Translations under genes and position numbers: made by a program
Shown: positions 1 to 8,151 of the stretch, piece by piece
How the letters are laid out: every line of letters starts with the position of its first letter
Position numbering within the stretch: position 1 is the first letter of the stretch
Source: a virus
Lineage: Duplodnaviria > Heunggongvirae > Uroviricota > Caudoviricetes
DNA: 8,151 nucleotides
Strand: one strand, 5' to 3'
Virus record (IMG/VR): IMGVR_UViG_2671180254_000013
The notes under the pieces: generated by a model
Database searches by the model: none
Seen by the model: only the letters and a program-made list of their open reading frames with translations
What the model was told of the DNA's origin: nothing

Positions 1-2
1 GC

Positions 3-350
3 AATAACCACTGTCATGAAATCCGTATTCTTCATCGTGCAGTTAAATACCTTCCACCAGCAGGCCATAACGGGCTTACTATTCGTTCACCGTTTCCTAG
101 TGCAGTCGTTGTTTTTAAAAAAGAACCACGTAAGCACGAAATTACACAGACGGTTTGCTGTGGTGACACGCTATTACCGTTAACCATCATTAACAGAGGA
201 GGCTTGAGAGGAAGACCCACCATTTACCCACCTGAGACGCTCGACAGCTTCATAAAACTATACAGGCAAGGAAAACCCATTAAGTGCATTGCAGATGCTC
301 TCAGAATGCCTCTGAGCACGTCATACAGGATTGCTCAAAGGTTGAGCTAG
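3..350 (+). CDS. 5'-truncated ORF (enters from left edge); C-terminal helix-turn-helix resembling the DNA-binding domain of small serine recombinases (resolvase/invertase); could also be another HTH protein such as a homing-endonuclease DNA-binding tail
   Basis: Frame 3 is open from base 3 to the TAG at 348-350 (115 codons without a stop, in AT-rich DNA). C-terminal translation ...NRGGLRGRPTIYPPETLDSFIKLYRQGKPIKCIADALRMPLSTSYRIAQRLS has the G-R-P ... helix-turn-helix ... S-T-x-Y-R pattern seen at the C-termini of Hin/Gin/resolvase proteins. The upstream ~70 residues do not look like a resolvase catalytic domain to me. It has no in-frame start in the window, so it is missing from the supplied ORF track. 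Local GC (~45% in 1-180, hand count) is higher than the rest of the window. Confidence 0.4.
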   Translation, partial: NNHCHEIRILHRAVKYLPPAGHNGLTIRSPFPSAVVVFKKEPRKHEITQTVCCGDTLLPLTIINRGGLRGRPTIYPPETLDSFIKLYRQGKPIKCIADALRMPLSTSYRIAQRLS

Positions 351-364
351 AATTCTCATAAATA

Positions 365-427
365 TGGTCATTTACAAGATAGGTGATTCAGATATTAAGA
401 AGCATCCCTGTGAACAATAAATGACCA
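365..427. repeat. 10-bp perfect inverted repeat TGGTCATTTA (365-374) / TAAATGACCA (418-427), 43 bp apart, in an AT-rich intergenic region; candidate protein-binding or recombination/origin site
   Basis: Read directly from the sequence. It lies 15 bp downstream of the left-edge ORF stop and ~300 bp upstream of the winged-helix gene. Nearby similar motifs CTGTGAACAATAA (~407-419) and CTGTGAAATAATT (~441-453). Confidence 0.45.
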
Positions 428-732
428 ATCAGTAATTATTCTGTGAAATAATTGTTGCAATTTATAATCACATCTGTTATAGTTTTTATATGGGGTGATA
501 AAAGAACTCAGAACATTAAGAGGTTACAACGTTGGGAGGCGTCAGGGTATTGACAGATTTTCACGGCCTCTTATTCAATCAAGGCTTTTCCTTTTGCTGT
601 TAATACTCGCGTAATCGCTCAGGCTTCTGAGTTCCTTTATCAGTCCATCTTCTAATTAATTCACTCCCTCTGGGGTTGGTCACTATACGTGGTCAGCCCT
701 TTCTTTGTTTTATTTTTAAAAAGGAAAATATA

Positions 733-1923
733 ATGGAAAAATTCCACATGTTTGATGACCGTATTTATCAGATGACTAATGGCGTTAAAGCTGCCGACCG
801 TATTATTTACACTGTCATGTTGAATGAACAAAAGTTTTATCACGATAAGGGGCAATATTATACCCCTTCATATGCTCATCTTGGTCAGTATGCTGGAATC
901 ACAAGAACATCCGTGATTGCATGTATGAAACAACTTGAGGCACATGGTTTAATCAAGAAAACTAACGTTGCAAGCAATCAGTGTGTTATTAAAGTTTATT
1001 CACTTGATGAAGTACCGGAGGTTTTAACAGAGCTTACAGCTAAGGAAGCCAGAAAGGCAAAGCTGGAGTCTAAAGTTACTCAGTCAGTCAAGAAAGATGA
1101 NNNNNNNNNNNNNNNNNNNNNNNNNNNNNNNNNNNNNNNNNNNNNNNNNNNNNNNNNNNNNNNNNNNNNNNNNNNNNNNNNNNNNNNNNNNNNNNNNNNN
1201 NNNNNNNNNNNNNNNNNNNNNNNNNNNNNNNNNNNNNNNNNNNNNNNNNNNNNNNNNNNNNNNNNNNNNNNNNNNNNNNNNNNNNNNNNNNNNNNNNNNN
1301 NNNNNNNNNNNNNNNNNNNNNNNNNNNNNNNNNNNNNNNNNNNNNNNNNNNNNGCTAAAGAGGTCGTTAAAAAGGAAGATAAAATCTCTGATGTGATTGC
1401 TAGTAGTGACCATAAAAACACACAGTGCCCCGCCACTGATGATGAATTACCGGATGTTGACCTTGATGATGAAGAAGACCCTGAAAAGGAATTGAAACGT
1501 GAACAGCGTAAAGCAGAAATTAAAGAAAGATTCAGAAATGCGAAGCTAAAGAACAAGGTTAGTGACCTCGATGACTTTGATGATAGTGACGATGATTTTA
1601 CTTTTACACCAAAAAAGAAAACTCACACCGAGCCAAAGAAANNNNNNNNNNNNNNNNNNNNNNNNNNNNNNNNNNNNNNNNNNNNNNNNNNNNNNNNNNN
1701 NNNNNNNNNNNNNNNNNNNNNNNNNNNNNNNNNNNNNNNNNNNNNNNNNNNNNNNNNNNNNNNNNNNNNNNNNNNNNNNNNNNNNNNNNNNNNNNNNNNN
1801 NNNNNNNNNNNNNNNNNNNNNNNNNNNNNNNNNNNNNNNNNNNNNNNNNNNNNNNNNNNNNNNNNNNNNNNNNNNNNNNNNNNNNNNNNNNNNNNNNNNN
1901 NNNNGTCCACCAGCTACGATTAA
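733..1923 (+). CDS. Winged-helix (HTH_36 / replisome-organizer-like) DNA-binding protein with acidic low-complexity C-terminal region; putative replication initiator or regulator; interior masked by N runs, 3' end uncertain
   Basis: ATG at 733 preceded by AAAGGAAA (SD-like, ~8 nt spacer); the TTG at 676 in the ORF track is a less likely start. N-terminal ~120 aa (MEKFHMFDDRIYQMTNGVKAADRIIYTVMLNEQKFYHDKGQYYTPSYAHLGQYAGITRTSVIACMKQLEAHGLIKKT) matches the pattern of HTH_36-type winged-helix domains found in phage/plasmid replication proteins. The segment between the N runs (1354-1641) stays open in the same frame and encodes a highly acidic/charged stretch (DDELPDVDLDDEEDPEKEL...DLDDFDDSDDDFTF). 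Stop TAA at 1921-1923 is only 5 codons after the second N run, so the real stop could lie inside a gap. Confidence 0.5.
   Translation: MEKFHMFDDRIYQMTNGVKAADRIIYTVMLNEQKFYHDKGQYYTPSYAHLGQYAGITRTSVIACMKQLEAHGLIKKTNVASNQCVIKVYSLDEVPEVLTELTAKEARKAKLESKVTQSVKKDXXXXXXXXXXXXXXXXXXXXXXXXXXXXXXXXXXXXXXXXXXXXXXXXXXXXXXXXXXXXXXXXXXXXXXXXXXXXXXXXXXXXXAKEVVKKEDKISDVIASSDHKNTQCPATDDELPDVDLDDEEDPEKELKREQRKAEIKERFRNAKLKNKVSDLDDFDDSDDDFTFTPKKKTHTEPKKXXXXXXXXXXXXXXXXXXXXXXXXXXXXXXXXXXXXXXXXXXXXXXXXXXXXXXXXXXXXXXXXXXXXXXXXXXXXXXXXXXXXXXXXSTSYD
1101..1353. other. Run of 253 N (assembly gap or masked sequence) inside the winged-helix gene
   Basis: Directly visible. Reading frame on both sides is compatible with a single ORF if the gap length is exact (1/3 chance by coincidence). 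Confidence 0.95.
1642..1904. other. Run of 263 N (assembly gap or masked sequence) near the 3' end of the winged-helix gene
   Basis: Directly visible. Only 18 nt of real sequence follow before the in-frame stop, so frame continuity cannot be assessed. Confidence 0.95.
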
Positions 1924-1991
1924 AAGACGGTGACCCCGGTAATCTGAGGGCCACCAATATTATCAAGGGAAAGTGCCGGTAAGGCCACCAG

Positions 1992-2168
1992 CTATTTATT
2001 TACTGAAATCTCTATCTCAACACGAAGAAGTTTAAGTCGAATTGTAAGCTTTGTCTTTTTTGTAATGACTCGATTCATAACGCAAAACACCAATAGCACA
2101 ATAAATACCGCAAAGCCCAACGAGCTAAAACGATGAGATTCAATAATTGCTGTGAAAAAATCATGCAT
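1992..2168 (-). CDS. Small putative membrane protein (58 aa from the internal ATG; 68 aa if the GTG at 2198 is used)
   Basis: Only convincing minus-strand ORF. The ATG at 2168-2166 is preceded on the minus strand by AAGGA with a 6-nt spacer; product MHDFFTAIIESHRFSSLGFAVFIVLLVFCVMNRVITKK... has one hydrophobic helix-like segment. Convergent with the winged-helix gene and divergent from the RHH operon. Short, so confidence is low. Confidence 0.3.
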   Translation of the reverse strand: MHDFFTAIIESHRFSSLGFAVFIVLLVFCVMNRVITKKTKLTIRLKLLRVEIEISVNK

Positions 2169-2240
2169 TAATTTTCCTTTTGTGAAAGGAAACAGCACCT
2201 GTATCAGCCCCTACAACCATAGTATCATGTAAATGAGGTA

Positions 2241-2269
2241 CTGACAATATGTTAAATAGATGTTAAGAT
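2241..2269 (+). promoter_or_regulatory. Putative sigma70-type promoter for the RHH operon: -35 CTGACA (2241-2246), 17-bp spacer, -10 TAAGAT (2264-2269)
   Basis: Hexamers read from sequence, 4/6 match to TATAAT and 5/6 to TTGACA, correct spacing, ~35 nt upstream of the ATG at 2306. No experimental support. Confidence 0.3.
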
Positions 2270-2305
2270 TGTAGTATGAGTAAGAGATTTAAGGAGATTT
2301 TTACA

Positions 2306-2596
2306 ATGACTCACACAGTTACGCGCCTTTTGCCAGAGGCATTTGAACGACTGGCAGCAATCAAAGCCAAATATCCCGATATGAAGCACACAGCGCTTGT
2401 TGGGGAGATTTTAAAAGAGTCGGTAAACCTTAGCCCTTTCGATAACGTTAAGGGCGTCGCAGAGGGTTCTAAGGCCATCAGAATCACAACGGGCCAACTG
2501 GAACTACTCAAAGCACAGTCCGCAGTAGCAGGTTGCTCAATGATTCAGGTGTTAAGCGCTAAGGTCCATCAACTGGCGGATAGATTGGAGGTTTAA
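2306..2596 (+). CDS. Ribbon-helix-helix-like DNA-binding protein, apparently two RHH motifs in one 96-aa chain (TraY/CopG/antitoxin-like fold class)
   Basis: ATG at 2306 preceded by AAGGAG with 8-nt spacer (preferred over the in-frame ATG at 2276, which lacks an SD). Two segments each show a beta-strand of alternating residues followed by two short helices: HTVTRLLPEAFERLAAIKAKYPDMKHTALVGEILKES and KAIRITTGQLELLKAQSAVAGCSMIQVLSAKVHQLADRL (G-x-S turn in the second). Stop TAA overlaps the next start (TAATG). Confidence 0.55.
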   Translation: MTHTVTRLLPEAFERLAAIKAKYPDMKHTALVGEILKESVNLSPFDNVKGVAEGSKAIRITTGQLELLKAQSAVAGCSMIQVLSAKVHQLADRLEV

Positions 2597-2817
2597 TGTG
2601 TTATAGGTTCCAATATTCCACACTTGGCCGCCACCTAATCAGACAGAATTTAGCAGATGCTGAATTTGAAGATGTGACCCTCAAAGCAAACAAACGATTA
2701 AAACCCTCTCAAATCCACCAGCTTAAACACGAATTAAAGCCACTGGTAATACTCGACTATAACGACCCTGAACAGCTTGAGCAGGGAATTAAGCTTATTT
2801 CTGAATGGGGTGCTTGA
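2596..2817 (+). CDS. Hypothetical protein, 73 aa, translationally coupled to the RHH gene
   Basis: ATG at 2596 overlaps the upstream stop (TAATG); GGAGG at 2587-2591 just upstream; stop TGA at 2815-2817 overlaps the next start (TGATG). No recognisable motif. Confidence 0.5.
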   Translation: MCYRFQYSTLGRHLIRQNLADAEFEDVTLKANKRLKPSQIHQLKHELKPLVILDYNDPEQLEQGIKLISEWGA

Positions 2818-3032
2818 TGAAAACTATCACAGTACAACTTCAGACTAATAAAGCATTTCGTTATTTTGAAAACTTGCTTGAGTTATACGAAGGATGGGGA
2901 AGTATCCACGGCAAAGATGATATCTATCTTCACTTGTCAGCCCCTAACTATTCTCTGAAGACTCCGGTTAAGCAAAGCTGGTTAAAAGACTACGGTCACC
3001 AGATGGGGCTATTAGTCTCAGACTTGAGCTAA
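2817..3032 (+). CDS. Hypothetical protein, 71 aa (MKTITVQLQTNKAFRYFENLLELYEGWGS...), third gene of the coupled operon
   Basis: ATG at 2817 in a TGATG overlap with the upstream stop; GGGGTG SD-like element 6 nt upstream; the ORF-track start at 2805 is in the same frame but lacks an SD. No recognisable motif. Confidence 0.5.
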   Translation: MKTITVQLQTNKAFRYFENLLELYEGWGSIHGKDDIYLHLSAPNYSLKTPVKQSWLKDYGHQMGLLVSDLS

Positions 3033-3074
3033 AAACAGCAAAACATATCTCTCAGGCTTTACCAGACGCACCAG

Positions 3075-3150
3075 AAACGTTTTTAAGCCCCTAATCAGGG
3101 TAACTTAGGGAATCGCCTTAAGTGGTCTAAAAAAGGGGTTAAAACGTCTT
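3075..3150 (+). promoter_or_regulatory. Imperfect long-range inverted repeat (AAACGTTTTTAAGCCCCT 3075-3092 / AAGGGGTTAAAACGTCTT 3133-3150) between the RHH operon and the next gene; candidate operator or RNA structure
   Basis: Arms pair over ~14 bp with one or two bulges (AGGGG/CCCCT, TTAA/TTAA, AACGT/ACGTT). No T-run follows, so not a classic intrinsic terminator. Confidence 0.3.
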
Positions 3151-3178
3151 AGAATGCGATACAGGAAGGATTTTAAAA

Positions 3179-3484
3179 ATGAATTACCCAATGCAAATTA
3201 TGGTTGACCAAGAAACCATGAATTGGTTGATTGACCTGAACAGGTCGGGCTTTAATATCTATTTCATGCATTGTTTTGAAGCGTCAACGTATATTGACAA
3301 GCATATAATCAACGAAATTAAACTTGGTGACTATGTTCACAAGCTGGAAGTAACAGACCCATACAATAAGCGCTTTATCATTGAAGAGTGCAATCGACTT
3401 GATTTAAGCCCTGAGCAATTATTGAAGCTGAATGTATTCTTGACCTATCAGAATGAATTAAACCCTTACAGCGAGGTGATGTAA
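3179..3484 (+). CDS. Hypothetical protein, 101 aa
   Basis: ATG at 3179 preceded by AGGAAGGA with ~8-nt spacer; stop TAA overlaps the start of the next small ORF (TAATG). No recognisable motif. Confidence 0.55.
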   Translation: MNYPMQIMVDQETMNWLIDLNRSGFNIYFMHCFEASTYIDKHIINEIKLGDYVHKLEVTDPYNKRFIIEECNRLDLSPEQLLKLNVFLTYQNELNPYSEVM

Positions 3485-3561
3485 TGACACTCGTTATTCT
3501 CTGGATGACTTTAGGGTTATTTGTTGGTTGCTGGGTAGGTAATACGGTAAATAAGAATTGA
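3484..3561 (+). CDS. Small hydrophobic peptide, 25 aa (MTLVILWMTLGLFVGCWVGNTVNKN); single predicted transmembrane segment; candidate small membrane toxin / holin-like or membrane-modulating peptide
   Basis: ATG at 3484 overlaps the upstream stop (TAATG) and is preceded by GAGGTG with 5-nt spacer; 17 of the first 19 residues are hydrophobic or small. Below the length cut-off of the ORF track. Short ORFs are easily false positives; the RBS and coupling raise confidence. Confidence 0.4.
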   Translation: MTLVILWMTLGLFVGCWVGNTVNKN

Positions 3562-3585
3562 TGTTACCAATCTGTTAAAAAGCTG

Positions 3586-3640
3586 TTGACAAATAACCTT
3601 AAGCATGAGATGATGGTAATAGGGAAGAGCAACTCTTCCT
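3586..3640 (+). promoter_or_regulatory. Promoter-like element (-35 TTGACA 3586-3591, 17-bp spacer, extended -10 TGaGATGAT 3606-3614) immediately followed by a 7-bp-arm palindrome GGAAGAG-CAA-CTCTTCC (3623-3639), positioned like an operator
   Basis: Perfect -35 hexamer, correct spacing, TG-extended -10 with 4/6 match; the palindrome starts ~9 bp after the -10. The next long ORF starts ~350 nt downstream (3960), so the transcript would carry a long leader or be a non-coding RNA. Confidence 0.35.
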
Positions 3641-3680
3641 GAATTAAACTATTAATCATTCTACATCAATGATAGTTATT

Positions 3681-3736
3681 CTGAAAGGTGCAATGCTTTT
3701 CGCTACATGACCTTTCAGGTTAGTCTGAGAGGTCAT
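3681..3736 (+). ncRNA. Two overlapping, mutually exclusive stem-loops (9-bp stem 3681-3689/3710-3718; 7-bp stem 3707-3713/3730-3736); candidate regulatory leader / attenuator-like RNA element or sRNA
   Basis: Both inverted repeats are perfect (CTGAAAGGT/ACCTTTCAG and ATGACCT/AGGTCAT) and share bases 3710-3713, so only one can form at a time. They lie in a ~400-nt region with no ORF longer than ~19 codons. RNA identity is inferred, not shown. Confidence 0.3.
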
Positions 3737-3761
3737 CTCGAAAAGTACTCTTGTTCATTCG

Positions 3762-3784
3762 TTTGAATCCTTTTTGAATCCTTT
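3762..3784 (+). repeat. Tandem direct repeat TTTGAATCCTTT / TTGAATCCTTT (2 copies)
   Basis: Read directly from the sequence, inside the long non-coding region upstream of the 236-aa gene. Confidence 0.5.
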
Positions 3785-3959
3785 AGATGTTTTAATTTCT
3801 TCACCTTATGAATGGCCCTTTATAAGAAATTATCTAGGGCTATTCAGCTTTTAAAAAGCATACTTGGCAAACCGCCTTTTAAGTCTCTTCTAAGTTTAGA
3901 TAGGCTGTCAGGTGTGCTTTTTAAAAACTGAAACACTTCCGCTTAGAAGAGGAAAAGCA

Positions 3960-4670
3960 ATGACAAATGATATTTACATTAATGGCAAAGTGATTGATAG
4001 CTTCAGTGACTGGTCGCCACAGACTGAACATCCAGCTATCACTATTCAGCGTAAAGAGCATGACAAGCGTATTGAGCTTGAGCAATCGCTAAAGATGTCA
4101 CCAAAAACAACCATCTTTGTGTCTCCTGAGCCTCAAGAGATGCCTGATATTTGCAAGAGTGAAGCATTACTTGAGCTTGAAAAGAAATATTACCAACTGC
4201 TGAAAGAACAGCGCCTTAGATTAGATGACGCTTACAGCAAAGTTACCTTGATGCAATCAGCTATTGAGCCGTCAGAATTTGAGATTCAGGATGAATTGTC
4301 ACAGAAACCATTTGTCTATTACCAATACGAAGATAATGATGGTTTTGGTACTTTTCAAGAAAACGTCGCAGCCGTGATTAGTAGTCTTCCTGCTGGACAT
4401 CGAATTGTGAAGATGGTTAAGGCATCAAGAGGTGCTGGTCAGTTTATTTACATGACTAATAAGAGCGATGAAGAACTCGCTGAAATTGCTAGACAGAACA
4501 TCTTGGCATCACGTAACAAGCAACTTGATAATGTTAAGTTGTATCTCTCAAGAGAGCTTCAGGCTATGAAAGAGCTTGTGAAAGAATATGAAGATGCTAA
4601 GAAGATTGCTATGCAGGCTGATATTGAGCAGCTTACGAAGATTTCTAGCAAATATGCAAAGGCTATTTAA
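3960..4670 (+). CDS. Hypothetical protein, 236 aa, charged and coiled-coil-rich C-terminal half; function unknown (not recognisably a tail tube or tail chaperone)
   Basis: ATG at 3960 preceded by AGAGGA with 6-nt spacer (the GTG at 3912 in the ORF track is a less likely start); stop TAA at 4668-4670. No motif I can name. Confidence 0.6.
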   Translation: MTNDIYINGKVIDSFSDWSPQTEHPAITIQRKEHDKRIELEQSLKMSPKTTIFVSPEPQEMPDICKSEALLELEKKYYQLLKEQRLRLDDAYSKVTLMQSAIEPSEFEIQDELSQKPFVYYQYEDNDGFGTFQENVAAVISSLPAGHRIVKMVKASRGAGQFIYMTNKSDEELAEIARQNILASRNKQLDNVKLYLSRELQAMKELVKEYEDAKKIAMQADIEQLTKISSKYAKAI

Positions 4671-4694
4671 TTAATAATTAAAAGGTGGTGGTGA

Positions 4695-4901
4695 ATGATT
4701 GATTTAACAGAACGCTATGAGCTTATTAAAGCAATTAGTGAACGATTGAAAGAACAACCCAACAAACCAAAACGAATCAAATCATTCACCTCCTCTAAGC
4801 AAAAGAATAGAATCAGGAAAATAGCTAAGTGGTGTCTTGATAAATTACCAAGTGATTGTCAGATTGTTGGTGAAGATGGTAATTATTATCTGGTTAGGTA
4901 A
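4695..4901 (+). CDS. Hypothetical small basic protein, 68 aa (K/R-rich centre: NKPKRIKSFTSSKQKNRIRKIAKW)
   Basis: ATG at 4695 preceded by AGGTGG with 6-nt spacer; stop TAA at 4899-4901. Basic composition suggests nucleic-acid binding, but that is inference. Confidence 0.5.
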   Translation: MIDLTERYELIKAISERLKEQPNKPKRIKSFTSSKQKNRIRKIAKWCLDKLPSDCQIVGEDGNYYLVR

Positions 4902-4999
4902 CAAGATTGGTTGGGTGAAAATCTACGGGAGAGATTATCGAGTGATATCGGTAGTCTTTCCCTTTTTCGTATATGAACACTTAAAGAGGTGAAACATGA

Positions 5000-7180
5000 A
5001 TGAGCAAATTCACAGTTGATAGTTTTATCGTTGAACTTAGTTTCAGTGAAAACGTTATTAAGGGCTTGCAAAGAGTTGAAAAGGCAGCTTTGCAGTCAGC
5101 ACAAAGAATTGAACGCAATTTGAATAGAGCGTTTAAGGTCGATACCAAGCAACTTGACAGCAATCTGACAAGTTCTTTAGGGCAGCTTGAAAGGAAGTTT
5201 AATAAGACCTTTGACAAGATTGAGCAGAGAGCAAGAAGCACAAAAGCATTTCAGTTTGCCACCAGATTTAATGACACTGTTAATCCTCCAAAACAATCAA
5301 GGCAACCACGAATTAGCGGAAACAGAGCAATCACAGCAGCGCATAGCGTGAATATGTCTAAGCTTGGTGATATTAATCCGCTGATGGCTAAAATGTTTAA
5401 AGCACAGTATTACAGCTTAAGCGGTAAGGCTGGTAATATTGGAAGTGAAAAGTTTAACGCTGAACTTGCAAAATTAAATCAATCTCTTCGTGAAACGTTG
5501 AATAAACTCAGGTCACAGACAAAGACCGCCAGCATTAACAATACAAGCGACGCATTTAATAATCTTGCAAGCAATGCGATTAAATTATCTGGTGCATTTT
5601 ACTCTGTGATGGGTGCTCTTAACGCTTACAAGGCCATTATGAATGCAGGTCTTAAACGAGATTCCGCACAGAGAGCCGCTAAGTTTGTACTTGGTGATAA
5701 AGCATCTGAAGCTGAGGTATTTATTCGAAATTTAGCAGACAAGACAGGTCTTAATATCTCTGAAGGGCTATCAAGCTACGCTAAGTTTGCAGCAGGTGCT
5801 CAGGGTTCTATGTCACAGGAACAGACACAGGAGCTATTTGGTAATGCAACGGCTATGAGTCGCTTAATGGGGCTTTCTAACGATGAGCTAAACGGCATTT
5901 TGAGAGCATTTGAGCAGATGGCGAGCAAGGGCAAGATTCAGGCTGAGGAATTACGTGGGCAGTTAGGTGACCGTATGGCTGGTGCATTTAAGCTATTCGC
6001 TGAAGCATTGGGTATGACTGCTACAGAGCTTGATGCAGCCATGAAAAACGGGAAGGTACTTTCCGCTGATACTCTCCCTAAAGTCGCTAAACAGATGGGC
6101 TTGATGATTGATAAAGCGGGTGGCTGGGCTGAAGTCACTAAGAGCACTCAGACAGCTTTAGGTAAGTTAGCAAACAATTGGGATGATACGATGGTGAAAA
6201 TCTTCTCAGGTTCACAGGATGAGCTAAACGGCTTCTTATCCAGCCTGAGTAACCTGCTTAGTGAAATGGGGATGAGTTCTTCTATCGCTGGTGATGCTAT
6301 CGGTGGACTTATCGACATGCTTAAAGCTGGTGTAGATGATATTCGCGTATTCAATAACACCATTGAAGGCTGGATTTTACAGACTAAGAAGTTCTATTAC
6401 AGCCTTGATGACACTAAACGAAAACTACTTGATGAAGTCGGTGATGGTTTTATCAACTTCGTCAAAGGTCTTGCTATAGCGTTATCTGCAAAGACGCTAT
6501 TCAGTGCTACTACAGGGGTTATGAACCTGACAAGAGCAATCACAACGTTAGGTACAAGAGCTAATCAGGTGGCTGGTCAGGTAGCTACTGGTAAAGGTGG
6601 TGGAAAACTGAAAGGTGTAGCTGGTGGTGTAGGTAGTGCTCTTGCAATTGGTTATGCTGATGACGGTTATGAAACAGCGTTAGCATTAGCTTCAATGATT
6701 CCACAAATCAGAGGCGTCACTCTTGGTTTATATGCATTGAAGAAAGCACTGGATTTTATGAATCAGGAAGTAGTCAAAAACGCTAATATGCATCCGTCTG
6801 GGGTAGGTGTGGGTAGTGACTTTAATCCCGTGTATTCTGGTGACCCTAATAAACCGAATATGATTAACGAAGGATGGAGTAGAATTTTTAGTTCAATGGG
6901 TGAATTGTTTAACAATGCCACAATGAATATTGCAAGATTCAATCATCCAGAGTTAAACAACATTAAGCAAGATTCAGCATTAACGAGTGCAGATATTCAG
7001 GGTCTGAGGGATGAAATTAGTGCTTTGAGTAAGCGTATTCAGGAGCCAGTGAAAGTTTCACTTGGTGGTCAAGTTGTCGTTCGACCAGATGAACCATCTT
7101 TCTTTACTTTCAATCAATCAGCTAATGACCAGTTCACGCAGGATATGCTCTTAAGTTCAAGCTATCCAGAGGAAGAATGA
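5000..7180 (+). CDS. Phage tail tape measure protein (726 aa)
   Basis: ATG at 5000 preceded by AGAGGTGA with ~6-nt spacer. Alpha-helical, coiled-coil-like N-terminus. Central segment EELRGQLGDRMAGAFKLFAEALGMTATELDAAMKNGKVLSADTLPKVAKQMG matches the conserved tape-measure domain pattern of lambda-H-like proteins. Gly/Ala-rich hydrophobic segment (AGQVATGKGGGKLKGVAGGVGSALAIGY...LALASMIPQIRGVTLGLYAL) near the C-terminus is typical of tape measure proteins. No obvious lysozyme or peptidase motif. Confidence 0.75.
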   Translation: MSKFTVDSFIVELSFSENVIKGLQRVEKAALQSAQRIERNLNRAFKVDTKQLDSNLTSSLGQLERKFNKTFDKIEQRARSTKAFQFATRFNDTVNPPKQSRQPRISGNRAITAAHSVNMSKLGDINPLMAKMFKAQYYSLSGKAGNIGSEKFNAELAKLNQSLRETLNKLRSQTKTASINNTSDAFNNLASNAIKLSGAFYSVMGALNAYKAIMNAGLKRDSAQRAAKFVLGDKASEAEVFIRNLADKTGLNISEGLSSYAKFAAGAQGSMSQEQTQELFGNATAMSRLMGLSNDELNGILRAFEQMASKGKIQAEELRGQLGDRMAGAFKLFAEALGMTATELDAAMKNGKVLSADTLPKVAKQMGLMIDKAGGWAEVTKSTQTALGKLANNWDDTMVKIFSGSQDELNGFLSSLSNLLSEMGMSSSIAGDAIGGLIDMLKAGVDDIRVFNNTIEGWILQTKKFYYSLDDTKRKLLDEVGDGFINFVKGLAIALSAKTLFSATTGVMNLTRAITTLGTRANQVAGQVATGKGGGKLKGVAGGVGSALAIGYADDGYETALALASMIPQIRGVTLGLYALKKALDFMNQEVVKNANMHPSGVGVGSDFNPVYSGDPNKPNMINEGWSRIFSSMGELFNNATMNIARFNHPELNNIKQDSALTSADIQGLRDEISALSKRIQEPVKVSLGGQVVVRPDEPSFFTFNQSANDQFTQDMLLSSSYPEEE

Positions 7181-7192
7181 TTTAACGGTGTT

Positions 7193-8081
<889 letters not shown>

Positions 8082-8151
8082 TTTGGCATCCATCTCCGAT
8101 CACAGTTTGGCATCACAATCGATCACGATTTGGCATACTTCCGATCATTGA

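Follow-up and report, generated by a model that had tools for sequence, protein, structure and literature searches.

The window analyzed here is an 8151-nucleotide stretch of DNA from a tailed virus record (IMG/VR IMGVR_UViG_2671180254_000013). Inside it, the end of a gene for a 101-aa protein is overlapped by a frame of only 25 codons, followed by a long region with the potential to form RNA structure. We asked whether so short a frame is a gene and, if it is, what its product would do in the element that carries it. A sequence-only reading of the window had named type I toxins, holin-like peptides and abortive-infection effectors among the candidates.

The Small Frame and Its Overlap with the Upstream Gene

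The gene for the 101-aa protein occupies positions 3179 to 3484 on the plus strand and ends with a TAA stop at 3482–3484. The last base of that stop is the first base of the ATG of the small frame (3484–3486), creating a TAATG stop/start overlap at 3482–3486 of the kind associated with termination–reinitiation coupling. The small gene extends on the same strand from 3484 to 3561, closing with a TGA at 3559–3561. A Shine–Dalgarno-like GAGGTG is found at 3473–3478 on the plus strand, within the last codons of the 101-aa gene and 5 nt before the ATG of the small frame. The overlap and the ribosome-binding sequence had both been pointed out from the letters of the window; the coordinates can be read directly, and among the related loci that could be assessed, the overlap recurs in 80 of 80 and the Shine–Dalgarno-like sequence in 79 of 80.

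The product, MTLVILWMTLGLFVGCWVGNTVNKN, is a single-pass membrane peptide by its composition: one hydrophobic stretch of about 18–19 residues and then a short polar/basic tail of 5–6 residues, of which one is basic. Its maximum Kyte–Doolittle mean over 17 residues (KD17) is 2.11. The length of the frame is unremarkable alone, with 25 frames of at least 20 aa overlapping the surrounding 1.5 kb. Hydrophobicity is the rarer property; a KD17 of 1.9 or more is reached by just 4% of the 329 ATG-initiated frames of 20–30 aa found in the chromosomal islands described below. Since short frames are common there and 4% of them are this hydrophobic, the sequence of the window by itself is suggestive and inconclusive.

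Evidence That the Small Frame Is a Gene

More than 100 related loci were examined. They were collected by five routes, which included annotated E. coli genomes, look-ups of divergent homologs, a DNA pattern taken from the promoter beside the frame and protein-alignment scans of viral and metagenome contigs. Scanning genome contigs with a pattern based on the peptide confirmed no loci. The DNA pattern from the promoter region was successful, with several chance matches in unrelated MAGs being thrown out. In the first 20 enterobacterial loci, the small frame was open and overlapped the preceding stop in every one. Two of the collection scans yielded 86 loci, and the six of these that consist of contig ends or contain an inserted gene were not assessable. 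In all 80 that could be assessed, a hydrophobic ATG-initiated frame overlaps the stop codon of the upstream gene, through TAATG in 77 cases and ATGA in 3. This is the arrangement expected if translation of the two genes is coupled, as had been claimed, and it answers the proposal to look for the peptide downstream of homologs of the 101-aa protein in related genomes. A Shine–Dalgarno-like 4-mer is present between −18 and −4 in 79 of the 80 loci, despite upstream proteins that end in C-termini as different as SEVM, VRVH and KVVH. These locus counts do not represent independent events because the sampled loci are related Enterobacteriaceae.

The 78-nt frame is represented by 53 unique versions in 91 loci, which encode 35 peptides. 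Variation falls most heavily on the third codon position, with 16, 14 and 21 of 25 sites variable at the first, second and third positions, respectively. The mean pairwise dN among the 53 versions is 0.196 and the mean dS is 1.05, for a ratio of 0.19, and stops close both of the other plus-strand frames in every version. The exceptions are one frameshifted copy of 19 aa and one stop-loss variant of 31 aa. It had been reasoned that a small frame broken in relatives with an intact upstream gene would speak against a functional peptide; apart from the single frameshifted copy, the frame has been kept under the constraint given by that ratio. From this conservation beyond chance, we conclude that the 25-codon frame is almost certainly a genuine, conserved protein-coding gene.

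A way to explain a conserved frame with no functional product is to suppose that the peptide sequence is irrelevant, and that the frame only carries ribosomes to the end of the operon, where they might prevent Rho termination or affect the adjacent promoter, or that the DNA itself is a cis element. The 3′ half of the frame does belong, along with the promoter, to a stretch of DNA that 478 E. coli genomes have in common, and the stop codon is 25 nt from the −35 hexamer. This explanation is very unlikely considering the dN/dS of 0.19 in the face of saturated synonymous change (dS ~1.05) and the excess of third-position variation. It is also opposed by the persistence of the hydrophobicity, of the 21–25-aa length and of a small-xxx-small motif in classes of the peptide that have little DNA similarity to each other.

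The expectation that standard gene callers would pass over a gene of this size, leaving it unannotated, proved correct. RefSeq annotation of the E. coli genomes carrying the island skips it, and the exact 25-, 22- and 21-aa peptide sequences are absent from a collection of 15 billion proteins, in which only the 31-aa stop-loss variant has ever been called. A full-text literature search for the peptide sequences found no paper. The peptides match nothing in Pfam, PHROGs, NCBIfam or PADLOC and bear no similarity to any described family, and tblastn of the peptide against phages gave no match. The peptide is an unannotated and new family within a general kind already known, the small membrane proteins of mobile elements; its gene is strongly selected as a protein-coding one and is never picked up by standard pipelines.

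Peptide Classes and Their Upstream Partners

In most of the E. coli islands, the 101-aa protein is replaced by a 107-aa family that is homologous to it (hhalign 96.6%, 30% identity). Behind the 107-aa gene comes a 21-aa peptide, MELVIICFVLIGMIAGASIKV, whose start overlaps through TAATG in the same way. More distant members of the family are followed by MIVQLTVVVTCIVLGFWLGGLMIKR or MTLIILWVLLGIVLSFAISMER via ATGA overlaps. The four peptide classes have a mutual identity of merely 16–40%, and all of them have a KD17 of 2.1–2.8, a length of 21–25 aa, a basic or polar C-terminus and small residues in a small-xxx-small spacing at positions 11/15/19 or 12/16. The claim that the product is essentially one transmembrane helix is supported for the peptide of the window, with its KD17 of 2.11, and all four classes are hydrophobic. 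The cassette is older than the 25-aa class, and it has been kept through a divergence of the partner protein to 30% identity.

The partnership itself is looser than it looks in the window. The 100-aa gene is separated from the peptide by a gene for a 74-aa soluble protein in L045, L046, L074, L075 and L137. Contigs that extend as far as the peptide frame are available for L045, L046 and L137, and there the peptide overlaps the stop of the 74-aa gene instead. Even with this gene inserted, the peptide remains the last frame before the conserved promoter. The shifted overlap implies that the constant feature is a hydrophobic micro-ORF serving as the last cistron ahead of the promoter, rather than a strict pairing with the 101-aa protein. 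Hence, of the pairing described from the window, the 101-aa protein stands as the usual upstream neighbor but not as an obligatory one.

The classes also bear on the case for a lipoprotein precursor. Residues 13–16 of the 25-aa peptide can be read as an L-x-G-C lipobox, which would leave a 10-residue lipopeptide, and within the 25-aa class G15–C16 never varies and follows L or F and then V, C or I. That reading is extremely improbable. A basic n-region is missing, F at −3 and C at −2 are unusual for a lipobox, and three of the four classes lack the cysteine or the lipobox: the 22-aa class is without cysteine, and an acceptable lipobox is found in neither the 21-aa nor the L039 class.

The 101-aa Protein

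The 101-aa protein matches no curated family in Pfam, PHROGs, NCBIfam or PADLOC. Its tblastn search against phages gave no match, and a sequence search of the PDB with the profile of the family returned nothing meaningful. The family is narrow, with 21 matches among 1.84 billion representatives. The exact 101-aa sequence is indexed in 4840 blocks of an assembly collection, and the 107-aa partner family comprises more than 3400 sequence clusters; both counts mark the family of elements that carries the peptide as a common one. Some longer homologs of 110–144 aa were considered as possible fusions with the peptide and rejected as N-terminal mis-calls.

Two independent structure searches both returned TraY and AvtR as the top matches, with weak scores and 10–16% sequence identity. 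The conserved turns G24-F-N and L-S77-P-E coincide with the position of the G-x-S/T/N turn of ribbon-helix-helix (RHH) proteins. Like TraY of the F plasmid and AvtR of an archaeal virus, the 101-aa protein is about 100 aa long and is predicted to have two beta-alpha-alpha repeats in one chain. It differs from them in having no relaxosome or conjugation context, and the match is one of weak structure scores. It is probably a single-chain tandem-RHH DNA-binding protein similar to TraY and AvtR, and our confidence in this is moderate because every score is weak. The two predicted repeats take up nearly the whole 101 aa, with no toxin-binding tail left.

That last feature matters in considering whether the two genes form an addiction pair that stabilizes the island, with the RHH protein as antitoxin and autorepressor and the overlapping membrane peptide as toxin. 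In the type V GhoS/GhoT system, GhoT is a short peptide that damages membranes. RHH proteins are frequent among type II antitoxins, and one of the structure searches with the 101-aa protein also listed RHH antitoxins. With a first gene of about 100 aa and a short second gene, the layout resembles those operons, and the gene order and overlap are present. Several points speak against the comparison. The predicted tandem RHH looks complete and fills nearly the whole chain, leaving no toxin-binding tail, and the peptide would expose only about six cytoplasmic residues. The adjacency is broken by the 74-aa gene in at least five loci. In L039, the RHH gene begins 25 nt behind the previous gene, and so has no promoter of its own. 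Finally, there is no match to a toxin–antitoxin family in PADLOC or Pfam or to any known enzymatic toxin family. We regard an addiction pair as doubtful.

The Promoter and Structured Leader Downstream of the Peptide

The peptide stop is followed immediately by a direct repeat, TGTTA-N6-TGTTA (3562–3577, plus strand), which fills part of the space to the −35 hexamer and is invariant in an alignment of 19 loci. A similar repeat is present in the divergent L039 class. It is a candidate site for the RHH protein or for another protein; as the repeat does not co-vary with the class of RHH protein, binding of the RHH protein there stays speculation. Next is a sigma-70-type promoter at 3586–3614 on the plus strand, 25 nt past the stop of the peptide, which reads TTGACA-17 nt-GATGAT with a TG extension and matches the consensus at 10 of 12 positions in the window. 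Most relatives have CATAAT as the −10, bringing the promoter to 11/12 with TG, and the −35 hexamer and its flank are invariant in the 19 loci.

Positions 3615–3959 on the plus strand make up a structured 5′ leader of the downstream operon, with hairpins at about 3623–3639, 3681–3718, 3814–3841 and 3853–3922, the last of these directly preceding the ribosome-binding site. The leader of ~340 nt has a minimum free energy of −111 kcal/mol (z = −7.56 versus shuffles), and RNAalifold assigns 55 pairs, 12 of them with compensatory changes. In relatives, some of the hairpins precede T tracts and score as intrinsic terminators; the copy in the window is weaker and does not score. Rfam recognized no family at threshold in the leader region, with only sub-threshold chance matches. 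Of 5426 complete E. coli genomes, 478 contain the leader block, a wider distribution than that of the 101-aa gene, and in many of the matches, the shared DNA starts inside the small frame and takes in its 3′ half. The earlier inference of a structured noncoding region is upheld by the z score and the compensatory pairs. Its interpretation as a regulatory RNA gives way to a better one: the region is best read as a constitutive-looking promoter and the terminator-laden leader of the tail-gene operon, a layout such as would be expected for antitermination control.

This arrangement bears on the suggestion that the peptide is a type I toxin like Hok, Ibs or TisB, silenced by an antisense RNA. Enterobacterial toxins of this type, such as Ibs, ShoB, TisB and Hok, are 19–50 aa and almost wholly one hydrophobic helix, and Hok is translationally coupled to an overlapping upstream frame. 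The peptide is a small hydrophobic peptide that resembles Ibs, ShoB and TisB in size and composition, and the window has one weak promoter-like site on the minus strand, at 3685–3658 (9/12), from which an antisense RNA might start. The alignment shows that the −10 of this site is not kept in relatives, and a consensus scan found no minus-strand site in two of them. Unlike the type I toxin genes, the peptide gene is the terminal cistron of a multigene operon with no conserved antisense promoter found. Its start overlaps the preceding stop in 80 of 80 loci, which speaks against an independent mRNA. No promoter or leader of its own is evident, although no dedicated scan for one was made, the adjoining conserved promoter points away from it, and Rfam detects no antitoxin RNA. 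With neither the defining antisense antitoxin nor the independent mRNA found, we disfavor this suggestion and consider it quite unlikely.

The Island That Carries the Peptide Gene

The exact 101-aa protein lies on chromosomes rich in IS1. The window is 99.98% identical to one of the collected loci, L001, and the island to which its genes belong sits between ymdF/rutG and wrbA. Related islands in E. coli are found between yciI and tonB, on the yecN/cmoA side and on the msyB/mdtG side, and the gene order is kept at no fewer than four chromosomal sites. Intact copies are about 10–11 kb and are bounded by a small resolvase-type recombinase and a large serine recombinase, both encoded on the minus strand. 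The resolvase is often followed by a Dam methylase, and next are an HTH/replication-initiator gene and several small genes, sometimes with an HNH endonuclease among them. Then come the 100-aa gene and the small frame, a gap of about 400–500 nt, and genes for proteins of 236–250 aa and about 70 aa. The plan ends with a tape measure protein, a Dit-like "baseplate" protein and the large serine recombinase, which contains PF00239, PF07508 and a zinc ribbon. The replication initiator has matches in PHROGs.

The first gene of the tail-gene operon (3960–4670, plus strand) encodes a 236-aa coiled-coil protein. NCBI annotation calls it a transposase; family and fold searches gave that name no detectable support, and we have dropped it. 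The protein has no Pfam, NCBIfam or PHROG family, no phage homolog and no similarity to phage chaperones. Its AlphaFold2 model consists of long helices at low confidence (pLDDT 61.9), with uninformative fold matches. The tape measure gene (5000–7180, plus strand; PF20155, phrog_4036) identifies the type of island. Its product aligns over its full length, at 29–30% identity, to the tape measure proteins of Felix-O1-like phages (Ounavirinae; Felixounavirus and Mooglevirus), and these phages encode, directly behind their tape measure gene, a product with 73% identity to the Dit-like protein. The rest of the island has no further match in a complete Felixounavirus genome, and window positions 2000–5000 have no DNA match in collections of phages and plasmids. 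The intact islands have no annotated capsid, terminase or lysis genes. Two contigs of about 11 kb were examined for circularity as a sign of excision; they are not circular but chromosomal, and one ends in wrbA.

A second small membrane protein is encoded on the minus strand at 1992–2168. It has 58 aa with one hydrophobic helix, and unlike the 25-aa peptide, it is called as a gene in many related loci. Versions of 58–62 aa, in two sequence types, are kept in all classes of the island. It has no Pfam or PADLOC family, and PHROGs and NCBIfam also returned nothing. It may be a partner of the peptide or the true lysis effector.

The peptide had also been suggested to be holin-like. Holins are typically at least 60 aa, and we rejected this reading for a peptide of 21–25 aa with one transmembrane helix and a 5–6-residue tail, lacking the charged C-terminal domain. 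Neither an endolysin, which would be the expected neighbor, nor a spanin or other lysis gene is annotated in the intact islands.

The gene content has a parallel in the PLEs of Vibrio. PLEs, which use a large serine recombinase for integration, have a chaperone (TAC), tape measure and baseplate hub of their own, 20–41% identical to those of phage ICP1, with which chimeric tails are formed (PMC12987554). That paper and LeGault et al. report PLE-like elements solely from vibrios. The island resembles PLEs in having a large serine recombinase, a replication initiator, and island-encoded tape measure and baseplate proteins with relatives in a virulent myovirus, with no capsid or terminase. It differs in size (~10 kb versus ~18 kb), in being found in Enterobacteriaceae rather than Vibrio, and in having a second recombinase, the small resolvase-type one, and in many cases Dam or HNH genes. 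In its gene content, then, the island looks like a PLE-like satellite of Felix-O1-type phages. We could not find a description of such a satellite in enteric bacteria in the literature searched, nor any literature linking Felix-O1-like phages to satellites. Felixounaviruses themselves carry rIIA/rIIB homologs, a spanin and an endolysin.

Proposed Role of the Peptide

The peptide gene is the last cistron of the rightwards regulatory/replication operon of this integrative island of about 10 kb. Ribosomes that finish the preceding cistron, whether the 101- or 107-aa gene or sometimes the 74-aa gene, would restart at the overlapping ATG, so that the peptide would be made whenever the regulatory/replication operon is translated. 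If the island is a satellite, translation of the operon and production of the peptide would follow infection by the helper. A hydrophobic helix followed by a short polar/basic tail implies insertion in the inner membrane with the N-terminus out and the C-terminus in. Since only 5–6 residues would be outside the bilayer, the peptide must act within the membrane. The small-xxx-small face would promote helix–helix packing, either of the peptide with itself to form a leaky oligomer or with another membrane protein. Candidates for the latter are a transmembrane segment of the holin or antiholin of the helper phage, or a host protein.

A precedent for such a protein is LidI, a small and formerly unannotated transmembrane protein that speeds lysis of ICP1-infected cells, and which is the only conserved membrane protein of PLEs, at 66 or 121 aa (PMC7182436). 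LidI and, by prediction, the peptide are small transmembrane proteins of a serine-recombinase-integrated element, the satellite of a virulent myovirus in the one case and the putative satellite in the other, and both were missed by annotation and found by synteny. They differ in helper (ICP1 versus a Felix-O1-like phage) and in host (Vibrio versus enteric genera). Expression during infection and acceleration of lysis have been demonstrated for LidI, whereas the peptide is likened to it by context. By this analogy, we infer that the most likely role of the peptide is that of an intramembrane effector during helper-phage infection, and that the most likely outcome of its action would be a perturbed membrane or a shift in the timing of lysis. 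Set against this, the 25-aa peptide is much smaller than LidI, the 58-aa membrane protein of the minus strand could equally be the lysis-related effector, and the satellite lifestyle is deduced from gene content. Overall, we assign a probability of roughly 0.6 to the reading that the frame encodes a one-helix inner-membrane peptide, closes the regulatory operon of a satellite, and likely provides a membrane or lysis-timing effector in helper infection. The peptide may be toxic to membranes or take part in abortive infection.

The same packing face could instead serve to bind a protein of the host inner membrane with no damage to the membrane, making the peptide a modulator or accessory subunit. 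The small bacterial proteins MgrB, AcrZ, KdpF and SgrT act by binding inner-membrane proteins. It might serve to keep the DNA of superinfecting phages from entering the cell, or to change how a transporter or sensor works. A single helix with a conserved small-xxx-small face and almost no extramembrane residues suits this role, as does an island with no lysis genes. There is no identifiable partner, and the classes have diverged strongly (16–40% identity), a pattern no less compatible with generic helix packing than with a specific conserved target. The data fit both this role and the favored one. We hold such a modulator to be a possibility of lower rank, though a more serious one than the addiction pair.

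The favored role as an effector in helper infection can be carried further, in a tentative form. The islands of Escherichia, Shigella, Citrobacter and Salmonella might constitute an undescribed family of PLE-like satellites that parasitizes virulent Felix-O1-like phages by means of chimeric tails. The 21–25-aa peptide would be its membrane effector, acting through a glycine-zipper-type oligomer or by binding to the holin system of the helper, and it would be the smallest known lysis-timing or abortive-infection peptide of a phage or satellite. We offer this full scheme as a conjecture, with the odds well against all of its parts being right together. If the islands are satellites, parasitism of virulent phages of the PLE type would extend from Vibrio to enteric bacteria. 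Such an extension would matter for phage therapy and phage typing because Salmonella and E. coli are targeted with Felix-O1-like phages. The peptide is a candidate means by which a small mobile island could act on the cell membrane. The family of elements that carries the peptide is a common one, judging from the presence of its leader region in the 478 complete E. coli genomes.

Island Architecture and Decay of the Window Copy

The island is about 10 kb long and is flanked by two serine recombinases, one small and one large; the window (1-8151) holds part of it, and an intact copy is found in a related locus (L011:3514-14678). Its tape measure protein (29-30%) and its Dit-like protein, encoded by the baseplate gene after the tape measure gene (73%), have their matches in neighbouring genes of Felix-O1-like virulent myoviruses; capsid and terminase genes are absent from the island. 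Judged from gene content, this is the architecture of a satellite resembling the PLEs of Vibrio. No description of a PLE-like satellite architecture for Enterobacteriaceae was found in the literature searched. At least four chromosomal sites are used by the island, and its carriers are E. coli, Shigella, E. albertii, E. marmotae, E. fergusonii, Citrobacter and Salmonella.

The island in the window is partly degraded, yet the 101-aa gene (3179-3484, +) and the overlapping membrane peptide gene (3484-3561, +) are intact. The alignment of the window DNA to the intact island is broken between positions 7484 and 7524. In the region 7337-8151 the Dit-like gene has decayed in this Shigella copy, where a 103-aa ORF (7770-8081) is its only remnant; IS1, IS21-like and IS3 elements come after that remnant in the source genomes. 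Since two masked runs of N (1101-1353 and 1642-1904) fall inside the replication-initiator gene, the ORF lists around that gene are artefactual.

Apparent Recombination at the Peptide Locus

At least five related loci carry an extra gene, encoding a 74-aa soluble protein, between the peptide and the 100-aa gene that is the counterpart of the 101-aa gene (L045:6327-6551, L046, L074, L075 and L137:4296-4520). The peptide ORF overlaps the inserted gene's stop in L045, L046 and L137, these being the loci in which the contig extends far enough for the overlap to be read. BLAST block boundaries fall inside the small ORF, at about 3509-3514, and the peptides include chimeras in which an N-terminal half beginning MGLIIAW... 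or MTLVILW... is joined to a common C-terminal half, ...GCWVGNTVNKN. Together, these boundaries and chimeras indicate that island lineages have recombined, with breakpoints within the small ORF.

Conserved GC-rich hairpins, e.g., GCCCCTAATCAGGG..., lie in the gap that precedes the 101-aa gene (3033-3178), which may be a terminator or a processing site. The divergent L039 class lacks this gap entirely. Farther upstream, a 58-aa ORF (1992-2168, - strand) runs in reverse to the operon around it and is kept across all island classes as two sequence types. It matched no Pfam or PADLOC family, and with its one hydrophobic helix (MHDFFTAIIESHRFSSLGFAVFIVLLVFCVMNRV...) it is predicted to be the island's second small membrane protein.

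The Leader and the 236-aa Protein

A near-consensus promoter and a highly structured leader (3586-3959) precede the tail-gene operon. The leader structure covaries, and terminator-like hairpins are seen in relatives; the layout suggests antitermination control of the operon. Conservation of this block extends to 478 of 5426 complete E. coli genomes and is wider than that of the upstream genes. One Shigella genome has what is apparently an insertion sequence within the leader: a DDE_3-family (PF13358) transposase gene, inserted between promoter and 236-aa gene (L009:10679-11710).

Many NCBI records label the 236-aa protein itself (3960-4670) a "transposase". It has no match in Pfam, NCBIfam or PHROG and its model is coiled-coil-like; the label appears to be a misannotation that has propagated.
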